Shown: positions 5,113 through 43,016 of the stretch, piece after piece
Numbering within the stretch: position 1 is the first letter of the stretch
Layout of the letters: every line of letters starts with the position of its first letter
Assembly: GCA_040766525.1 (NCBI GenBank)
Contig: JAXGQI010000004.1
Coordinates: forward strand, 9,869 to 73,868
From: Clostridiales bacterium
GTDB lineage: Bacteria; Bacillota; Dehalobacteriia; UBA7702
DNA: 64,000 nt
Direction: 5' to 3'
Made by a program: the position numbers and the translations under genes
Notes under the pieces: generated by a model
Database searches by the model: none
Seen by the model: the letters and a program-made list of their open reading frames with translations, nothing else
What the model was told of the DNA's origin: nothing

Positions 5113-5246
5113 TAATGAAGCGGCTTTTCTCGCTATGTAAAGCTAACGAAAACCTATTATTCGGCAAACCGCTGAACTGGATAAAAAGCTCCCAAGGCAA
5201 AGTAACTTTTACCGTCTGCGAAAAACGGACATTGAAAAGAATCAAA

Positions 5247-6500
5247 TGGTCATGGTATAATAAACTGACAGAAAAGAAAAGCGCGGAAAGGCGGAAAGGG
5301 AGTTCGAAGCCGGTAAAACGAGCAGTATATGACAAGCAATTTAAAGCTGCTGCAAAACTGGCACAAGGAACAATCAATGGTTACGCAAACAGCCATTGAT
5401 CTGGGAATCAGCGCAGTAGTCTGCAGATGGATCAACGAATATGATGAATATGGAGAAAGTAAGTGCTTCAGGCATGGGAACGCACTTTTTGTAACTCTAC
5501 GTATGAAATCAAGAACTACAAAAGCAAATTGATGATTTAAAAAATGGAGAACGAAATACTAAAAAAACTCCAGGCCTTCTTGAAAGTAAAGAATGTGTGA
5601 GGTTCCAGTTTCTAAAAGAAAATCAAAAGAAGACAATATTCAGAAGGAACAAAATTTTGGAAGAAGATCTCACGCAGCGGTTAAGCTATGATTATCTGAA
5701 ACGTCGAAAAGTAAACGTGCGATTGAAATGAAAGTGCTATCGGAAATGATCGAAGACATTTTCCATGAAAACAAAGGGCGTTATGGTGCAAGGCGTATAC
5801 AAAAGGTATTGGAACAAGAATATCAAGCGTCAAATCAAAAGAGTTTCCCGCTTAATGAGTGAACATGGTTTAATTGAAAAAAGGGACGCGAAAAATTTAT
5901 CGGTATCAGGCAAACAAAAACGCTTATGATGAAAAAGAAAAATATCCTTAATCAAGTATTCAAAGCAAATGAAAGAAATCAGATATGGGTCGGCGACATC
6001 ACATACATCCCAACAAAACACGGTTGGCTTTATTTGGCTGTTTTCATTGATATTTTTCTCGTGTTGCAACGGGATGGGCTATGGATACCAGAGTTCGTGT
6101 GATATATTGGCTTTACCGGCACTTAATCAGGGGCCGTGTTGGCAGAGAACATCCCACAGAGGGATTGATCATTCATACAGACCGGGGATCCCAATATGCT
6201 ATCTCAGCTTTCAGTCTGCGTGTATCTGTTACGGATTCCGACAAAGTATGAGTCGTAAAGAAATCCTTATGACAACGCAATTATGGAATCGTTCACCGTA
6301 CTTTTAAAAGAGAGCTTGTTCAGGATGCAAAATATGACAACCCTGAACAAGCTCGCATGGATATCTTTAAATATATTGAGACTATTACAATACTAAATTC
6401 AGACATCTATTCGGCCCTCAATTGGCTTTCTCCAACTCAATTTGAGGCCCAGTATGTTTAATTAACCTTAATTCTCTGTCCATTTTTCTTGACCTTTCCA
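5247..6500 (+). mobile_element. IS3-family insertion sequence (about 1.25 kb); transposase reading frames heavily disrupted
   Basis: OrfA-like HTH (VTQTAIDLGISAVVCRWINEYDEYGE). OrfB-like DDE motifs ([47 protein letters not shown]) scattered over all three frames. Imperfect roughly 30-bp terminal inverted repeats starting TGG at 5247 and 6500. Confidence 0.7.
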
Positions 6501-7235
6501 GTTAGGGTCTTCTTTTCCCGTCCTTTTTATTTCGGGGCAGTACATTTCACCTTTTGTACTGCCATTGGGGGCTTCGTTTATAAAACCTTCGGCAATCGGA
6601 TTTGCCCCACAACGATCAATCGAGAGATTTGCCTTTTTAGACCTTAGGGGACTTTAAGAAATGGCGACGAAAGTCGCCTACAAGCCGCTCTATATCCTGC
6701 CGAAATGCCTGGCAAGCATCGAGAAAGGCAGCGCTCCGGTGTGAGGAAGGAACCATGACCCCGGCCGGTCTCCCGATTGATCAGGAGAATCCAAGATTTC
6801 TCCTCCACTTTATTTAAGGATTACGCCTTTACTATAGGCCATACCCATCGCTTCTGCCGTTTTTAAAAGCAGGAACCGCTTTTGCACGCCTTTCAGGAGA
6901 CTGGCAATCCCGGGCCTGAATTCACCAAAACGGTCCCCGGTATAATGCACAAACGAAAACCGTACTCCAAATCCTTCATGGGTCCACCTCCTATTGCCTC
7001 CGTACCAATATCTTTATATATTCCGATTCCCCTCTTGCCGTTTCTCCTGCCGGAATATTACAATTATTCTCCATATTTGTGTAAGAATATCCCATTCTCC
7101 TTCACAACGGCAGCCCAAGCAAGATTTCAGCGCCGATTCGCCAAAAACTTCTTTGTTTAAGCACAAAAATCTCATAATTCGACCTGCTCAAAGCGATGCA
7201 AGCCAAAAGAGAGCACGGCCTTTCCCCCGAAAAAC

Positions 7236-19940: not shown

Positions 19941-21326
19941 ATGAAGAAATACTTAACCCGTTACGGAGATAACTATGCCGGTTATATGAGTGAATCCGAC
20001 ATCAGGGCCGACATCGAAAATGGGGTACAAGACGCAGCGGACCGGGGAAAAATTCCGCCGTTAAGTGCGGAAGATATGGAACTCTTATTTGAGATCATCA
20101 CTTCCCCGCAAAAGCTCGTTTCCGTCGAACCGGGAAAAGAAGTCGTCGTCTCTTTTGATGCTGGAACCTTAAAACTACCTGTTAGAAACGGCATCCCCAT
20201 GGATCGTCTCCAAGCGATTTTGACCCAGGAGCGGGCTTTGGCTTCAGACAGTATTGAACTGTGCCATGTGGATTACAGTTATAAACCGGTGAAAGCCATC
20301 ATCAGCGAAGAACGGCAAGCGATGGAACAGGCTCAGCTGATGACAACATTGCCGCTCCTCTACGGCGCTATGCCCAACCTCGGGCTCTACACAAAACCCG
20401 ATGGCCCCGTAGGAAACTGGTCGGAATTATTACCGGCAGGGAAAATCGATGAAGCAAGAGAAGCCCAGGATGAAGCTATCCAACATGCGATCAAAGATAT
20501 CGTCTTTGTTGCCTCGAATATGATTGAGAGCGGTGCCGACGGCATCAACCTCGACACCGTAGGCGCTTCCGGCGATGCGGATGTCAAGGCCAGCTTGGAA
20601 GCGGTGCGGATCTTAAAAGGGAAATATCCCCATATCGGTTTTGAAACCGGAATGGCCGGGGAATTCAATATGGGCATGCACGGTCTTTTAGAGATCGATG
20701 GGCAGCGTATCGCCGGTTTATACCCGCATGAGCAGGTGAAAATGGCGGAAAAATGCGGCGTTTCCATCTTCGGCATGGCCGTCAATACCAATAGTTCGAT
20801 GTCCCTCGCTTGGAATCTCGCCCGGGTCTGCACTTTTGCCAAAGAAGCGGTACGGGTAGCAGAAATCCCCGTCCATGCCAATGTCGGCATGGGGGTCGGC
20901 GGGATCCCTCTATCCATCATTCCCGCAGCCGACGCCGTATCCAGAGTGGACAAAGCGCTGGTGGAAATTGCCCATGTCGACGGGTTGTAGGTAGGCGCCG
21001 GAGATACTTTCAGGATGGCGGTCACCCATGAAGCCACCGCCGGAATGGGCGGCATCCGGGCAGCGGGAGACCTCGTCTTCCGGATGGAACTGGCCAAAAT
21101 GAAAATCGATCAAGCCAAAGCTTTTGTTGCGGAAAAATTGCATGTTGGCGTGGAGGACCTCGCCGATTGCGCCGTAATGAAAGATTTGAGAGAAGAATTG
21201 AATATCGGCACCACACAAAACCGGCCCAATGCCGGCGTAGGCATCCAAACGAAATTCCGTATCGCTGAGATTATGGGAATCCCCATCAACAGCGTTGAGA
21301 AATTCAAAAAAGAAGCTGGAATATAA
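19941..21326 (+). CDS. mtbB: Dimethylamine:corrinoid methyltransferase with in-frame UAG (pyrrolysine) at 20988-20990
   Basis: ORFs 19941..20990 and 21015..21326 are in the same frame. Sequence reads ...[50 protein letters not shown].... As I recall it, Methanosarcina MtbB reads VDGI-Pyl-IGVGDP...[14 protein letters not shown], collinear on both sides of the UAG. Confidence 0.85.
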
Positions 21327-21343: not shown

Positions 21344-22815
21344 ATGGGTCTCAGAAACGATAGAGCCGGATATCAGCAACTTAGCGGCTTTGGAATCAAT
21401 ATTTTTAGCGAAGATGAACTCTACGCCCTCCATCTATCCACCTTGGAGGTCTTACAGGATGTCGGTATCCGCATTAACGCAGCGGACGCCAGAGAAGCCT
21501 TAGCAGCGGCAGGCGCCGTGGTCGATGAAAAAAACCGCATCGTCCATTTCCCCGGCTGGCTCGTAGAAGACGCGATTCGCACAGCGCCGAAGGCGGTTCT
21601 CTTCGCCGGCAGAAATCCCAAAAATGATTATATATTGGAAACCAACCGCGTGGGCTTTACCAATTTCGGTGAAGGCATCATGGTCAATGACATCTATACC
21701 GGAGAATACCGGCGCAGCACCAAAAAGGATACGGGGGACGCCGCTCGCTTAGTGGACGCTTTGGACGCCATTGATATCCACGAAAGAGCCCTTTCCGCCC
21801 AAGACGTACCGGCTCCCATCGCCTCGCTTCACGAGGTTGAAATCAATATCACCAATACTTCCAAACACATCGCCCAAGGCTGTAGCGGCAAAAAGAACCT
21901 GCAACGCATCTACAAAATGATGTGCAAAATTGCAGGTTCCGAAGAAGCCTATCGGCAACGCCCCACCTACAGCACCATCACCTGCCCGATCAGCCCCCTG
22001 CAATTGGCGCCGGAAAGTACCGACGTCATCATGGAGTCGGCTCGCCTCGGCGTACCGATCACCATTATCTCCATGGCCTTATCCGGCGGCACCACGCCGG
22101 TAACGCTGGCAGGAACGCTGATTACCCATAATGCGGAGGTTTTGGCGGCAATTGTTCTTTCCCAAGTCACCAAAAAAGGCGCCCCCATCGTTTACGGCAG
22201 TTCCACCACAATCATGGATCTGAAGTATACGACCTCCCCTGTGGGCTGCCCGGAATTGGGAATGATCAATGCGGCTGTTGCGAAAATGGCGCAGTTCTAT
22301 AACCTCCCCAGCTGGGTCGCGGGCGGCTAGGCAGACAGCAAAATCGCGGACGGCCAAGCGGCGCACGAAAAAACCGTCACCGCTCTGCTCCCGGCATTGG
22401 CAGGCGCCAATGTCATCTATGGGCTGGGCATGTTGGAACTCGGTATCACTTTAGATTTCGCGCAGCTGGTTATCGACAATGAAATCGCCGCCATGATCAA
22501 ATGGGCAGTCAAAGGAATCGATGTTGATGATTATGAAATGGCTGTTCATGTGATCAAGGAAGTCGGCGTAGCCGGAGAATTTATCACCCATCAGCATACC
22601 TATGACAATTTCAAGGCTGTACAATCCAGTACCCGCCTCTTTGACCGGCAGATGCAGGAAGGCTGGGAGGCTATGGGAGGAAAAGATTTGCTGGAAAGAG
22701 CAACGGAACGAGCAAAATACATTCTGGAAAATCATAAACCGGACCCGCTCCGCATGGAGCCGCCGCTTATATGGCAGAGATCATCGCGGAAGCCAAAGAG
22801 GAAGAGAACCTCTAA
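21344..22815 (+). CDS. mttB: Trimethylamine:corrinoid methyltransferase with in-frame UAG (pyrrolysine) at 22328-22330; additional apparent frameshift near 22745-22755
   Basis: ORFs 21344..22330 and 22397..22915 share a frame. Sequence reads ...[47 protein letters not shown].... The likely true C-terminus (HGAAAYMAEIIAEAKEEENL, stop at 22813-22815) is in another frame. Confidence 0.8.
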
Positions 22816-22893
22816 ACCCATGCCCCACAAAAATAATATATACCTACATATATATTATAAGGAAGGTTTGGCTTCACCGAACCTTCCCGGAGT

Positions 22894-22996
22894 ATTGATC
22901 AAGTCGGTAAGATGAGAGCAACGGCCAACAAACCAAAGACCCTGGACGCATGGCGTATCGACATACGCTGGTGGTCAGGGGCTTTGGTTTAACAAC
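22894..22996 (+). repeat. Structured repeat / candidate ncRNA, copy 1
   Basis: ATTGATCAAGTCGGTAAGATGAGAGCAAC... then a long hairpin AAACCAAAGACCCTG-GACGC-A-[GCGTAT cgac ATACGC]-TGGTGGTC-AGGGGCTTTGGTTT. Homologous to 24641..24765 and, with compensatory stem changes, to 42892..43011. Preceded by a small hairpin at 22861-22887. Confidence 0.6.
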
Positions 22997-23162
22997 AGAA
23001 ATGTTTTTTGACTGCTGCTTCAGGAAGAATATTGGCAAAATCCGTACTTGACTTTGCCGCTAAAGAAAAAAGCGGCAAAACAGGGTTTTTCTCCTATAGC
23101 TGGAATATTACTATTGTAATATTTTTAGAAAACATCGAACAGAAAGGAAGGTCGCTATTGAG

Positions 23163-24566
23163 ATGTCCATTCAATTGATTATTATCATCATATATTTTGC
23201 CATCACGATCACCATCGGTCTGATCGCAAAGAAAAAATCCACCAGTTCCAACAGCTTCCATGGGGCAGGGCTCGGTTGCCTCATGTGTGTTGCGGCAGGG
23301 ACGGGAGAGTGGCTGGGAGGAACCGCCACTACAGGGGTTTCCGAATATGGTTTCCTCTATGGTATTTCCGGGGCCTGGTATACCATTGCCAATGGCCTTG
23401 GCGTCATCGTGCTGGCAATCTTTTTTGCGAAATTGTACCGCAGCCTGGATACGGTCACCGTTCCCGGCATCGTGGAAAAATATGTCGGCATTGATGCCCG
23501 CCTTGTTGCCAGCATTCTTTTGACCTTCGTTATGCTGGCAGTGGGCACTTCCCAATTATTGGCCGCCGGCGCATTGGGCGTCACGATCCTGGGTTTACCG
23601 TATGAAGCCTGCGTACTGATTTTGGGCATCGGCTTTATCGTCTATACCTTAGCCGGCGGTATGGTCGCCGTGGGCTATACCAATATTATGCACTTGATTA
23701 CGATGTACGGCGGCGTCTTGCTTGCGCTCTTCTTTGTAATCAAAGGCTTAGGCGGTCCGGAAGTTTTAAGCACGCAGCTGCCGGAAAGTTATTTCTCCAT
23801 GAGCAGCATCGGCATGACCAAGGTCTCCTCCTGGCTCATTGCCTCCGTTCTCGGGGCTTGTACGGCACAAGCGGGGATTCAACCCATCTTGGCGGCAAAA
23901 GATGTTCATGTAGCCAGAAAAGCCGCCTTCATCACCGCTTTTGTGGTGGCGCCTTTCGGCATTTTGACGGCATTTTTGGGCATGAGCGCAAAAATCGCCT
24001 TGCCGGGATTGGCCGACGCCAAGCAGGCTTTGCCCCAGTTGCTTCTGACTTTGGACCCCGTCATTGGCGGCCTCGTTTTGGCCGCGATCTTTGCGGCCAT
24101 CCTTTCGACGATCTCTCCGATCATCTTAGCCAGCGGCACGATGATCACGAAAGACATTTATCAACGCAGAATCAATCCGGAGGCCCCGGACACACAAGTT
24201 TTGAAGATTTCCAGGATCTTTACGGGACTCGCCGGCGTTGTCTGCATTATCTTAGCTCTGCTATTATATGGTTCTACAACCATTCTCGATATGGTCTACT
24301 TTGCTTACAGCCTCAGAGGCGCCATCTTCGTCGTTTTGATCTTTGCCATCTATTGGAAGAAGACGTCGCCGAAAGGCGCAACTTACGCCATGGTTTTCAC
24401 CGGGATCGTCGGCGCACTCTGGGTCATAGGGAAAAGTGTGGGCGGCAGTTATCCCATCCACCCCGCTTTCACGGAAACCTATGCTTCGGTATTAGCCGCC
24501 ACATTATCCACCATCGTATTCAGCTATCTGTTTAAGAAAGAGCCCGGCTCCATCACAAACAAATAA
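23163..24566 (+). CDS. Sodium:solute symporter (SSS) family transporter
   Basis: 467-aa polytopic membrane ORF; N-terminal region IIIYFAITITIGLIAKKK...GEWLGGTATTGVSEYGFLYGISGAWYTIANGLG is typical of SSS proteins. Confidence 0.8.
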   Translation: MSIQLIIIIIYFAITITIGLIAKKKSTSSNSFHGAGLGCLMCVAAGTGEWLGGTATTGVSEYGFLYGISGAWYTIANGLGVIVLAIFFAKLYRSLDTVTVPGIVEKYVGIDARLVASILLTFVMLAVGTSQLLAAGALGVTILGLPYEACVLILGIGFIVYTLAGGMVAVGYTNIMHLITMYGGVLLALFFVIKGLGGPEVLSTQLPESYFSMSSIGMTKVSSWLIASVLGACTAQAGIQPILAAKDVHVARKAAFITAFVVAPFGILTAFLGMSAKIALPGLADAKQALPQLLLTLDPVIGGLVLAAIFAAILSTISPIILASGTMITKDIYQRRINPEAPDTQVLKISRIFTGLAGVVCIILALLLYGSTTILDMVYFAYSLRGAIFVVLIFAIYWKKTSPKGATYAMVFTGIVGALWVIGKSVGGSYPIHPAFTETYASVLAATLSTIVFSYLFKKEPGSITNK

Positions 24567-24609
24567 CCCCTGGAATAACGCAAACAAATTTGGTAAGAAT
24601 AAGACAAAA

Positions 24610-24636
24610 AGAGGAATTGCTTATTGCAATTCCTCT
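24610..24636 (+). terminator. Stem-loop after the SSS gene (weak terminator; also the 5' hairpin of repeat copy 2)
   Basis: AGAGGAATTGC-ttatt-GCAATTCCTCT, but no adjacent T-run. Its left arm is repeated at 24792-24808. Confidence 0.3.
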
Positions 24637-24640
24637 TCAG

Positions 24641-24765
24641 ATTGTCGATAAAGTCGACAAGATGGGAGACACAAGATAAAGGCCTAGAGCTAGGAAAAAC
24701 AAAGGCCCTGGACGCGTGGCGTATCTAAATATACGGAAGCGGTCAGGGGCTTTGGTTTGACAACG
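24641..24765 (+). repeat. Structured repeat / candidate ncRNA, copy 2
   Basis: ATTGTCGATAAAGTCGACAAGATGGGAGACAC... then ACAAAGGCCCTG-GACGCG-[GCGTAT ctaaat ATACG]-GAAGCGGTC-AGGGGCTTTGGTTTGACAAC. Right arm identical to copy 1. Confidence 0.6.
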
Positions 24766-24790
24766 CTATCGGCTTTTGTCTGCAGTCTCA

Positions 24791-24831
24791 AAAGAGGAAT
24801 TGCTTATTGAATAAGCAATTCCTCTTTTTTC
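24791..24831 (+). terminator. Rho-independent terminator immediately 3' of repeat copy 2
   Basis: AAAGAGGAATTGCTTATT / AATAAGCAATTCCTCTTT long stem followed by TTTTTT. Confidence 0.7.
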
Positions 24832-24916
24832 TGGTTCTATATTACCACAAAATCGCCGAAATTTCAAGTCTTGTATTTCCCCGACCCCCTTATTATACTG
24901 GAACCGAGGTGATATT

Positions 24917-25387
24917 ATGGATCCGTTGGCCATCTTGAACAGCGCCGCCCTACAGAAAGCCCAAACCATACAGGAATTACAAGAATGCAATGAAATTACC
25001 CTGCGCTTCGGGCTCTATCTTTCCGATCGGCAGATCAACGACCTTGTGGAAAAACGCTTCCAGGCGTTACAGGCCACCGGGCGCATCGAATTCGGCAAAG
25101 GTATCCTGAAAAAACTGCTTTGCACATTTGCCGATTCCCCTTATATCATGCAAGATCACTATGAAGAGATCATTTGGGAACTTTTAGATATCTTCTATTA
25201 TTTCAAGAATGAATCCCTGGATTTGATCGGCGATGACGATTTGATCGCCATCATGAAAGATCACTTTGATACCATCTGCCAAGGTTCCTTGGAATATTTG
25301 GGCGGCACGACCTTGGATGATCTTTGCCGGGATACCCGTTTCGGCCGTCTGGTGCAAGAAAGGGATAAATATCGCCATGACTTCTGA
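24917..25387 (+). CDS. Hypothetical protein (acidic, helical; no function I can assign)
   Basis: 156-aa ORF. Its stop overlaps the next gene's start (ATGACTTCTGA), implying translational coupling. Confidence 0.65.
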   Translation: MDPLAILNSAALQKAQTIQELQECNEITLRFGLYLSDRQINDLVEKRFQALQATGRIEFGKGILKKLLCTFADSPYIMQDHYEEIIWELLDIFYYFKNESLDLIGDDDLIAIMKDHFDTICQGSLEYLGGTTLDDLCRDTRFGRLVQERDKYRHDF

Positions 25388-28284: not shown

Positions 28285-28359
28285 TGGTGGGCCCACCTGG
28301 GATCGAACCAGGGACCGACCGGTTATGAGCCGGGGGCTCTACCGCTGAGCTATAGGCCC
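28285..28359 (-). tRNA. tRNA with anticodon CAT (Met, or Ile2 if lysidine-modified), CCA-encoded
   Basis: Reverse complement is GGGCCTATAGCTCAGCGGTAGAGCCCCCGGCTCATAACCGGTCGGTCCCTGGTTCGATCCCAGGTGGGCCCACCA (75 nt). It folds as a cloverleaf with a 7-bp acceptor stem, anticodon loop CTCATAA and T-loop GGTTCGATCC. Confidence 0.9.
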
Positions 28360-42649: not shown

Positions 42650-42891
42650 GGTATAAACAGCACCTCCCTGACGATTTAGGAATGATATTAAAAACAATAT
42701 TAAGTTTCATTTCAAGAGTCATTCTCTTGTACTTCTATTCGTAAAACCACTTTTTTAGAAATATATTCTATTTCTTAAATAATAACAAATAGATAAAAAA
42801 TGTCAATTTGTCATACCTCACAAACAATGAACCTGTATAGATAAAGTTTCAAAATAAATCAAATATATTGCAGCTTTTGCAATCGCCTGAG

Positions 42892-43011
42892 ACTGTCAAG
42901 AAAGGGTTTAGAGCAAGGCGCAGAAAAACCGCAGGACGCGACGTGTACAATGACGTACATAAGCGGTCTGCGGTTTTGCTGGAACATAGCACTAAGCACT
43001 TTATTGACAGT
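42892..43011 (+). repeat. Structured repeat / candidate ncRNA, copy 3 (divergent, compensatory stems)
   Basis: ACTGTCAAGAAAGGGTTTAGAGCAAGG... then AAAACCGCAG-GACGCG-[TGTAC aatgac GTACA]-TAAGCGGTC-TGCGGTTTT ...TTGACAGT. It has the same conserved GGACGCG / AAGCGGTC junctions as copies 1 and 2 but different, still complementary, stems. Confidence 0.55.
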
Positions 43012-43016
43012 TTCAA

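Follow-up and report, generated by a model that had tools for sequence, protein, structure and literature searches.

Insertion sequences (IS) of the IS1182 family include IS1272 and TnSha1 of staphylococci, which insert into DNA hairpins, for the most part those of terminators, in both orientations and without sequence specificity (PMC4923244), and which have non-autonomous or cargo-carrying derivatives (PMC4923244, PMC5678879). The outcome reported for these elements is that the stem-loop is partly deleted or replaced and that no target sequence is duplicated (PMC4923244, PMC5678879), while pathway b of the IS1272 model predicts that the entire stem-loop becomes duplicated if strand transfer takes place at the 5' feet (PMC5678879, Fig 13). 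Classical MITEs such as Correia/NEMIS, RUP, bcr1 and Chunjie make fixed 2-9 bp duplications at sequence-defined targets, and no family that duplicates terminators is described in a review of prokaryotic MITEs from 2024 (PMC10969869). REPs have also been described as targets of IS (PMC1525189). Hairpin targeting by the IS1182 family, whole-hairpin duplication as a prediction, and MITEs as a kind of element are all already published. Among DDE elements, those of the IS1634/IS1549 type make long, variable target duplications; their transposase belongs to a family other than IS1182, and their long repeats are not known to correspond to hairpins.

The elements that we describe here resemble IS1272 and TnSha1 in their hairpin targets and in the transposase family of their autonomous relatives (NF033551). 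They differ in being 150-nt miniatures that encode no protein and are present in ~80 copies per genome, and in that the whole stem-loop is duplicated on both sides, here as well as in Anoxybacillus, Wukongibacter and other relatives. With classical MITEs they share small size, lack of coding capacity, inverted repeats, a rod-like fold, high copy number, intergenic location and a presumed dependence on a transposase acting in trans (PMC10969869), but their target is a structure rather than a sequence and the duplication is a hairpin of 20-39 nt. Since their ends are common to IS of Anoxybacillus and Wukongibacter, we consider it likely, with a probability of about 0.8, that the two copies discussed below are non-autonomous miniature derivatives (MITEs) of an IS1182-family IS that targets hairpins.

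Both copies lie in the window, the whole 64,000-nt stretch of DNA analyzed (C34:9869-73868 of a 1.58-Mb, 52-contig assembly, G000, estimated to be 67% complete), one on each side of an SSS transporter gene. A preliminary description of this DNA had noted two homologous, co-oriented and strongly structured stretches, and this is borne out: the copies are both on the + strand and show 77% column identity in their alignment, with a 69-nt core that is 83% identical (BLAST E 5e-13 against the whole genome). The details that it had read in the two copies are also present, namely a shared 5' segment, an outer stem AAACCAAAG.CCCTG / CAGGGGCTTTGGTTT, a GGACGC / GGTC junction with a bulged G, and an inner GCGTAT/ATACG stem with loops that differ between the copies. 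The limits that it had drawn were too narrow, as copy 2 covers positions 24638-24789 instead of 24641-24765 and copy 1 covers 22888-23022.

Copy 2 is a full-length member of the putative MITE family A (24638..24789, + strand, 152 nt; nhmmer 160 bits, model positions 2-149) and is 88-96% identical to 20 other copies in the genome. It opens with a hairpin, P1 (24638..24664, + strand), in which the left terminal inverted repeat is joined to its own inverted copy (CAGATTGTCGAT AAA GTCGACAAGATG) and whose sequence is the left end of an IS1182-family IS found in Anoxybacillus (locus L070). A long imperfect rod closed by GAGAC...GTCTC follows (24666..24789, + strand), with a 3' end, GGCTTTTGTCTGCAGTCTC, that constitutes the right terminal inverted repeat. 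The apical hairpin of the rod, P3 (24700..24754, + strand), carries the conserved GGACGCG / AGCGGTC motif with its bulged G, and is the portion of the element to which the preliminary description referred. Copy 1 is a decayed member of the same family (22888..23022, + strand, 135 nt; nhmmer 74 bits against the family-A profile, model positions 3-148), in which P1 and the left inverted repeat are degenerate, the 5' strand of the rod has suffered a deletion and the 3' end reads TTTTTTGACTGCTGCTTCA. A third, 5'-truncated member belonging to family B lies further along the window (42885..43014, + strand, equivalent to C34:52753-52882; nhmmer 130 bits, model positions 9-138) and is followed by a hairpin, AAAGCCCGCC-ATA-GGCGGGCTT.

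Each of the two copies is preceded by a small hairpin, as had been noticed, but the view that these hairpins are of unrelated sequence does not hold, as each is a target hairpin that has been duplicated and of which this is the left copy. To the left of copy 2 stands the stem-loop of the SSS-gene terminator stripped of its T-tract (24606..24637, + strand; AAAAGAGGAATTGCTTATTGCAATTCCTCTT), which a terminator scan scored as a hairpin on the - strand, and which is identical to the right hairpin except for a 6-nt deletion. The right copy (24790-24827; with its T-tract 24790..24833, + strand) starts at 24790 with AAAAGAGGAATTGCTTATTGAATAAGCAATTCCTCTT followed by TTTT; the scan called it a terminator (terminator-like site 24790-24828, 18 pairs, T-rich tail), and from its sequence it is predicted to be the working terminator of the SSS gene plus the element. 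For copy 1, the left target hairpin is the stem-loop 3' of mttB (22859..22887, + strand; AAGGAAGGTTTGG-CTTCA-CCGAACCTTCC), and the right one persists as a remnant, AGGAAG (23022..23027, + strand), which matches the first bases of the left hairpin, while the rest is decayed; positions 23023-23090, which had been included in the structured interval, hold ordinary spacer and another small hairpin. The small hairpins are thus what lies on the left in target-site duplications that involve the terminators of mttB and of the SSS gene. Two neighboring terminators were hit independently, which is why a copy stands on each side of the SSS gene; no function shared with that gene is involved.

That no known riboswitch or small RNA family accounts for the element is confirmed by Rfam scans: no family was found for it over the window at the gathering threshold, nor over 22800-24920 at E<=10. 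The only real Rfam matches in the window are two PYLIS elements and one tRNA, and microRNA and snoRNA hits on the terminator hairpin were rejected as chance.

The preliminary description had advised a search for further genomic copies. Collecting them by BLAST and two rounds of nhmmer, we found that the repeat occupies ~80 loci on at least 35 contigs of the 1.58-Mb assembly. The nhmmer search gave 46 hits for family A and 43 for family B, and 62 of these hits are near full length, with consensus lengths of 153 nt and 164 nt and mean pairwise identities of 84% within A and 89% within B. These small, dispersed elements are non-coding: they are too short for an open reading frame (ORF) of 60 aa or more, and the listed ORFs that overlap them merely run in from the flanks. 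Families A and B have a common architecture, with the 5' hairpin P1 (CAGATTGTCGAC AAA GTCGACAAGATG) followed by an imperfect rod of ~125 nt closed by GAGAC...GTCTC and containing conserved islands, TAGAGC/GCTAT and GGACGCG/AGCGGTC. Their terminal inverted repeats read CAG(A/C)TTGTYGACAAAG at the 5' end and ...TTTGTCNNCAGTCT(G/C) at the 3' end, and another form of the element-end sequence of the clade is CAGNTTGTCGAC.

The family-A consensus folds with a predicted energy of -72.9 kcal/mol (RNAfold), the RNAalifold consensus comprises 50 pairs, and compensatory variants occur in the P1 stem among the copies of this genome. A candidate small hairpin P2 (CCTAG/CTAGG) was discarded, as the variants CACGG and CCAGG break its pairing and the rod pairing AGC/GCT is kept instead. 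When non-Watson-Crick cells of the rod are counted on the + strand, G.U exceeds C.A by 69 to 17 in family A and by 142 to 9 in family B, and the number of pairs with G.U is about double the number with C.A. This bias may reflect selection acting on a single strand, be it RNA or single-stranded DNA, which a model of purely selfish double-stranded DNA would not require, and it may equally stem from few inherited changes or from strand-biased mutation. In other copies an IS3-family IS is inserted in the apical (P3) loop, with 3-bp duplications. The apical loop is in this respect a specific IS3-family target as REP/BIME sequences are for the loop-specific IS1397 and ISKpn1 of the same family; what sets the element apart from REPs is that it has terminal inverted repeats and duplicates its target, and no RAYT was found in the assembled 67% of the genome. 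At a few loci, P3-like hairpins stand alone.

Crude ORF calls place the copies in intergenic regions at the 3' ends of genes, in both orientations: the gene located 3' of the element is transcribed toward it in 49 of 64 cases, and the one located 5' is co-oriented with it in 39 of 67. On both sides of most full-length copies stands a terminator-like hairpin of 20-39 nt that is specific to the locus, and this repeated hairpin is the target-site duplication; the hairpin adjoins CAG... on the left of the element and comes after ...GTCTC(A) on its right. The median best score between left and right flanks is 17, compared with 9 for mismatched flank pairs, and 19 of the 29 family-A copies score above the 99th percentile of this mismatched control. 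Right flanks fold at -17.6 kcal/mol (vs -6.6 when shuffled), and a T-run comes after the right-flank hairpin at 38 of 62 loci. The proximal hairpin copy usually has no T-tract, and the distal copy retains it. This preference for hairpins and terminators is the one known from IS1272 and other members of the IS1182 family.

A filled and an empty site can be compared for a homologous member in Wukongibacter; for the window copies the evidence is indirect and comes from the same-genus genome described below. The sequence of the filled site in Wukongibacter sp. M2B1 is TAGGCAGCTAAAGAAGCTGCCTT - element - TAGGCAGCTAAATAAGCTGCCTTTTTG (at greater length on the right side, TAGGCAGCTAAATAAGCTGCCTTTTTGTTG), and at the orthologous place in W. 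baidiensis, which has the same flanking genes, we find a single hairpin, AGGCAGCTAAACAGGCTGCCTTTTTG, and no element (in context, AGGCAGCTAAACAGGCTGCCTTTTTGCTG). One terminator became two, with the T-tract on the distal copy only. A second Wukongibacter site (L079) was rejected as a clean empty site, the other species having a different 164-nt sequence there.

A genome of the same genus (G001, 75% complete) was also compared, although its mttB-SSS spacer is too diverged from that of the window for a base-exact comparison. This spacer is 139 nt long (vs 348 nt here) and carries an orthologous hairpin, AGGAAGC-CTTT-GCTTCC, with no copy 1. On the 3' side of the G001 SSS gene there is another P1-type element, unlike the one here and ~215 nt long, which has its own hairpin duplication (AAACGCCCCGCCAAATG...); the terminator of this orthologous gene was hit independently. 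When copy 2 was compared by BLAST with 40 relatives, no match appeared outside its own genome because these relatives are too diverged for BLAST; the P1 pattern search, unlike BLAST, did find G001. We count the P1 motif 22 times in this genome and 10 times in G001, and 39 other relatives do not have it, which suggests acquisition by the genus followed by amplification.

The same ends can be followed well beyond this genus. A scan with the P1 core (TTGTNGACAAAGTCNACAAG) over one genome per species located the 20-nt P1 motif at 120 loci or more in many Firmicutes, and the matches listed include loci in Wukongibacter, Ca. Howiella, Tissierellales, Syntrophomonas, Acidaminobacter, Anoxybacillus, Geobacillus and others. 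These loci consist of a hairpin, the left end CAG(A/C)TTGT.GACAAAGTC.ACAAG, ~147-230 nt of interior, the right end TTTGTC.ACAG(T/C)CTG, and the same hairpin again; the right-end pattern can also be written TTTGTC.ACAGTCTG, ~150 nt from P1. The two free positions of P1 are complementary (T-A, C-G or A-T) in 119 of the 124 matches listed, and G-C is also seen, in G001; P1 is therefore a conserved hairpin.

In one Anoxybacillus sp. locus (L070:3941-5493), the same two ends lie 1.55 kb apart and enclose an ORF of 493 aa that scores 475 bits on the NCBIfam model NF033551, "IS1182 family transposase" (cut-off 270), and matches the Pfam families DUF772, DDE_Tnp_1 and DDE_Tnp_1_6. The hairpin duplication on its two sides is perfect over 24 bp (AACACCCGATAGTGATCGGGTGTT) and is the same kind of target duplication as that of the miniatures. 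Its ends read CAGCTTGTCGACAAAGT and, in reverse complement, CAGACTGTTGACAAAAT, to be compared with the family-A ends CAGATTGTCGACAAAGT (5') and, in reverse complement, (T)GAGACTGCAGACAAAAG (3'); the left end of the Anoxybacillus and Geobacillus IS is nearly identical to that of the miniatures (CAGCTTGTCGACAAAGTCGACAAGCTG), and at the right end both have the same type of sequence (TTTTGTCAACAGTCTG). The terminal inverted repeats of the window elements thus match those of a transposase-encoding IS1182-family IS. The IS differs from the miniatures in its size of 1.55 kb, its 493-aa transposase and its host, which belongs to another class of Firmicutes; a T-run comes after its P1, and the interior of the miniatures is not derived from the coding part of the IS. 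P1 and the T-run look like an insulating terminator placed before the transposase gene. Five more full IS copies and several internally deleted derivatives of ~430-490 nt are found in Anoxybacillus and Geobacillus loci, and one further locus (L069) carries a 2.3-kb version with unrelated genes between the same ends and a 41-nt duplication. Wukongibacter sp. M2B1 harbors 150-nt miniatures by the dozen, whose homology to family A extends along their length, together with an intact IS1182-family gene above cut-off that has CAGAYTGYTGACAAA at both ends; the ends of this IS read CAGATTGCTGACAAAC and, in reverse complement, CAGACTGTTGACAAAG.

No gene scored above the NF033551 cut-off in this genome (67% complete) or in G001 (75% complete). 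PF13751 hits in the same genome were examined as a cognate transposase and rejected, for they belong to a 350-aa IS5-like gene with unrelated ends, in an IS of 1.29 kb whose ends read GGGCA(C/T)CTCTAAAAAC. Repeats recovered by comparing the genome with itself by BLAST are of IS3, IS5 and ISL3 types only, none having the ends of the element, and looking through the genome for isolated element ends, with mismatches allowed, was too noisy to detect an autonomous partner. Three other MITE-rich genomes also have no IS1182-family gene above cut-off, and orphan families seem to be common. The copies in this genome look orphaned, with the cognate transposase sought in the assembled 67%; given that no transposase is found in that fraction and that the copies are 84-89% alike, the family looks old, and it is probably immobile now.

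The derivation from an IS1182-family IS can be cast as a series of steps. P1 is made by the left inverted repeat and the inverted copy that comes after it, and the interior has collapsed to an imperfect palindrome of ~125 nt, such that the element as a whole folds as a rod. A DDE transposase supplied in trans would move it, in keeping with the identity of its ends to those of the IS1182 family. The target would be chosen by DNA shape and not by sequence, as a palindrome able to form a hairpin or cruciform, in practice an intrinsic terminator, and the 3' ends of the element would be joined at the two outer (5') feet of the extruded palindrome. After such a strand transfer the whole palindrome would be present as a single strand at either end of the element, and repair of the two gaps would then yield two hairpin copies, as in pathway b of the IS1272 model (PMC5678879). 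Termination would be displaced by ~150 nt downstream rather than lost, making insertions nearly harmless; the high copy number plausibly arises because insertions are nearly harmless, the terminator being kept and no coding sequence being hit.

A gene-specific role has to be weighed against this origin, as the preliminary description had implied a structured RNA linked to the SSS gene. Two co-oriented copies that bracket one gene, with a very stable predicted fold (-72.9 kcal/mol) and some compensatory changes, might be read as a cis-regulatory RNA (riboswitch, attenuator or processing signal) of the SSS transporter/methylamine cluster. The ~80 dispersed copies, however, lie by unrelated genes, in both orientations and mostly downstream, instead of occupying a fixed upstream position and orientation before a coherent set of genes; no curated Rfam family matches them; and the target duplications and the empty site point to insertion. 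Their orientation relative to neighboring genes, together with target-site duplications and IS1182-family ends, identifies a mobile element, and the reading as a gene-specific regulator, to which we give almost no weight, is refuted by genomic distribution and orientation and by the absence of copy 1 before the orthologous SSS gene of G001. The element is fairly ordinary selfish DNA and not a regulator of the SSS gene. The same structured, RNA-like appearance, added to long target duplications of variable length (20-39 nt), could recall SINE-like non-autonomous retroelements that spread by target-primed reverse transcription (TPRT), but the ends are inverted repeats common to IS with a DDE transposase, family A has neither the 3' tail nor the gradient of 5' truncation typical of TPRT, and the boundaries of the duplications follow the feet of the hairpin instead of varying freely, so that this route is scarcely credible. 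Somewhat closer, yet still very improbable, are REP/REPIN palindromic repeats, which are spread and kept by a domesticated Y1/HUH RAYT transposase: the repeat is indeed high-copy, intergenic, hairpin-forming and placed at gene 3' ends, an IS3-family IS enters its apical loop as IS1397 does in E. coli REPs, and P3-like hairpins occur alone at a few loci. Y1_Tnp (PF01797) nevertheless has no match in this genome or in G001, both of them incomplete, and is detected in control genomes; the elements are ~150 nt long with terminal inverted repeats and 20-39 nt duplications, which REPs do not have; and an IS1182-family DDE element has ends identical to theirs. PATEs of the IS200/IS605 type have sub-terminal hairpins, lack inverted repeats and target duplication, insert 3' of a short motif and are mobilized in trans by a TnpA-Y1; this assignment was rejected, as target duplications and terminal inverted repeats are present and no Y1 transposase was found in either of the two incomplete genomes.

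Two further readings accept the mobile origin and add something to it. One is that the elements are now exapted, the transcribed 3'-UTR rod and the doubled terminator serving as a stabilizer, a processing site or a source of small RNA. Read-through into the element is expected where the proximal hairpin has no T-tract and the distal one has it, G.U is preferred over C.A on the + strand at about twice as many pairs, and P1 in the autonomous IS is followed by a T-run in the manner of a terminator. The orientation relative to the terminated gene is not fixed, however, copies decay freely through 5' truncations and IS insertions, as copy 1 does, and the G.U bias may come down to few inherited changes or strand-biased mutation; we regard exaptation as quite unlikely. 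The other, also unlikely though to be given slightly more credit, is that the clade represents a distinct structure-directed mode of DDE transposition whose miniatures are retained as 3'-UTR modules (terminator doublers or RNA-end stabilizers). The transpososome would dock on the extruded cruciform and join its outer feet, regenerating a complete terminator on each side, and the fold of the transcribed modules would be under strand-specific selection across Firmicutes, as the G.U-over-C.A bias could indicate.

Taken as IS1182-type MITEs, the ~80 intergenic "structured RNAs" of this genome and hundreds of others in Firmicutes should be annotated as such and not as riboswitches or small RNAs. 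The ~60 full-length copies found here, the more than 100 loci found elsewhere and one clean empty site form a natural data set that spans autonomous, cargo-carrying and miniature forms, all of which display duplication of the entire terminator stem-loop by the IS1182 family. These data favor target choice by DNA structure and are useful material for the study of structure-directed transposition. They also illustrate that an element can reach a high copy number (about one per 20 kb) in a genome of 2-3 Mb while leaving genes and terminators unbroken.

The two hairpin copies of one locus are often non-identical, with indels and small deletions, as at copy 2. Paired compensatory differences between them are found at C2:19886 and on contig C40, and the loop is inverted between the two copies in roughly a quarter of loci (for instance C49:33049 and C49:27857). 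Simple gap filling does not predict these differences, and template switching in the single-stranded palindrome during or after repair could produce them. We also observe six tandem arrays, always of B then A and in the same orientation; this B-hairpin-A arrangement looks like mobilization as a composite unit, and in two of the six arrays (C40:2715-3027 and C8:15116-15428) the inner hairpin is unlike the outer pair, which match each other.

Tandem arrays of the IS1182-type MITE subfamilies in the genome under study always run from family B through a hairpin to family A in a single orientation (contigs C1:19156-19471, C13:28813-29122, C8:15116-15428, C40:2715-3027, C7:12044-12356 and C50:24824-25078), and no A-B, A-A or B-B arrangement was seen among them. 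In two arrays the outer hairpins are alike and the inner one differs, a pattern expected if B-hairpin-A had been mobilised as one composite.

Family-A elements are themselves targets for insertion. In at least four copies in this genome, all outside the window, the long hairpin has an IS3-family insertion sequence in its apical loop (C50:65497-66986, C9:23796-25278, C50:23463-24912 and C35:1-1964). These insertions encode orfA and orfB, with rve and HTH_21 domains, have the ends TGTACTGCCCC...GGGGCAGTACA and generated 3-bp duplications (AAC, GAG); their placement is of the same type as the REP-loop targeting described for IS1397. A degraded IS3-family copy also lies inside the window at 5220-6547 (C34:15088-16415), and an ISL3-type insertion sequence with ends GGCTCTATACTAAAGATTGGGG occupies the start of the same contig (C34:38-1407), directly after a hairpin that itself follows a family-A right end.

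Related elements occur in other genomes. Downstream of the orthologous SSS transporter gene in the same-genus genome G001 (L042 3370-3640, a stretch of its contig C3) lies another element, distinct from those above and about 215 nt long, whose left end is of the same type as the left-end hairpin P1 (GGCTTGTGGACAAAGTCTACAAGCTGA). It is flanked on both sides by AAACGCCCCGCCAAATG..., with a complete terminator in the right copy only, and marks a separate insertion at this gene's terminator; next after it comes a hairpin resembling P3, the apical part of the rod. Anoxybacillus tengchongensis has a 2.3-kb element (L069, 4290-6650) whose ends are of the IS1182 type and whose 41-nt duplication includes a hairpin. 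Because it lacks a transposase and carries cargo, namely a protein of 325 aa in which peptidoglycan-binding-like motifs recur, together with an ORF of 138 aa, it represents a cargo-carrying non-autonomous form, resembling TnSha1 in this respect.

Lone hairpins similar to the apical part only (CAAAG.CCCTGG...CCAGGG.CTTTG) are also present in the genome under study, at C24:8230-8289, C3:13839-13899, C4:31557-31650, C45:46336-46402, C52:9985-10042 and C6:1585-1666, some with a T-tract. They may form an independent REP-like hairpin family, or be the source of the element's interior. In the family alignments, mispairs within the predicted rod, read on the plus strand of the element, are far more often G.U than C.A (69 versus 17 cells in family A, 142 versus 9 in family B), a bias that could reflect strand-specific selection or strand-biased mutation.

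Compared with G001 over 22740-22815, the mttB frame is off by one base near 22745-22760, so that the listed ORF extends to 22915, into copy 1, the decayed family-A element; the homologous stop is the TAA at 22813-22815. The G001 mttB has its own frameshift slightly upstream (L042 ~1640-1800), and both MAG frameshifts are probably assembly indels.

Rfam places PYLIS elements at 20988-21087 and 22328-22427 of the window, in mtbB and mttB, which contain in-frame TAG (pyrrolysine) codons, and a tRNA on the minus strand at 28288-28359. The host is an uncultured bacterium of Clostridia type that uses pyrrolysine and metabolises methylamines. Among named records the closest, with 82% identity across 3.2 kb, is a MAG labelled 'Clostridiales bacterium' that came from an anaerobic membrane bioreactor.
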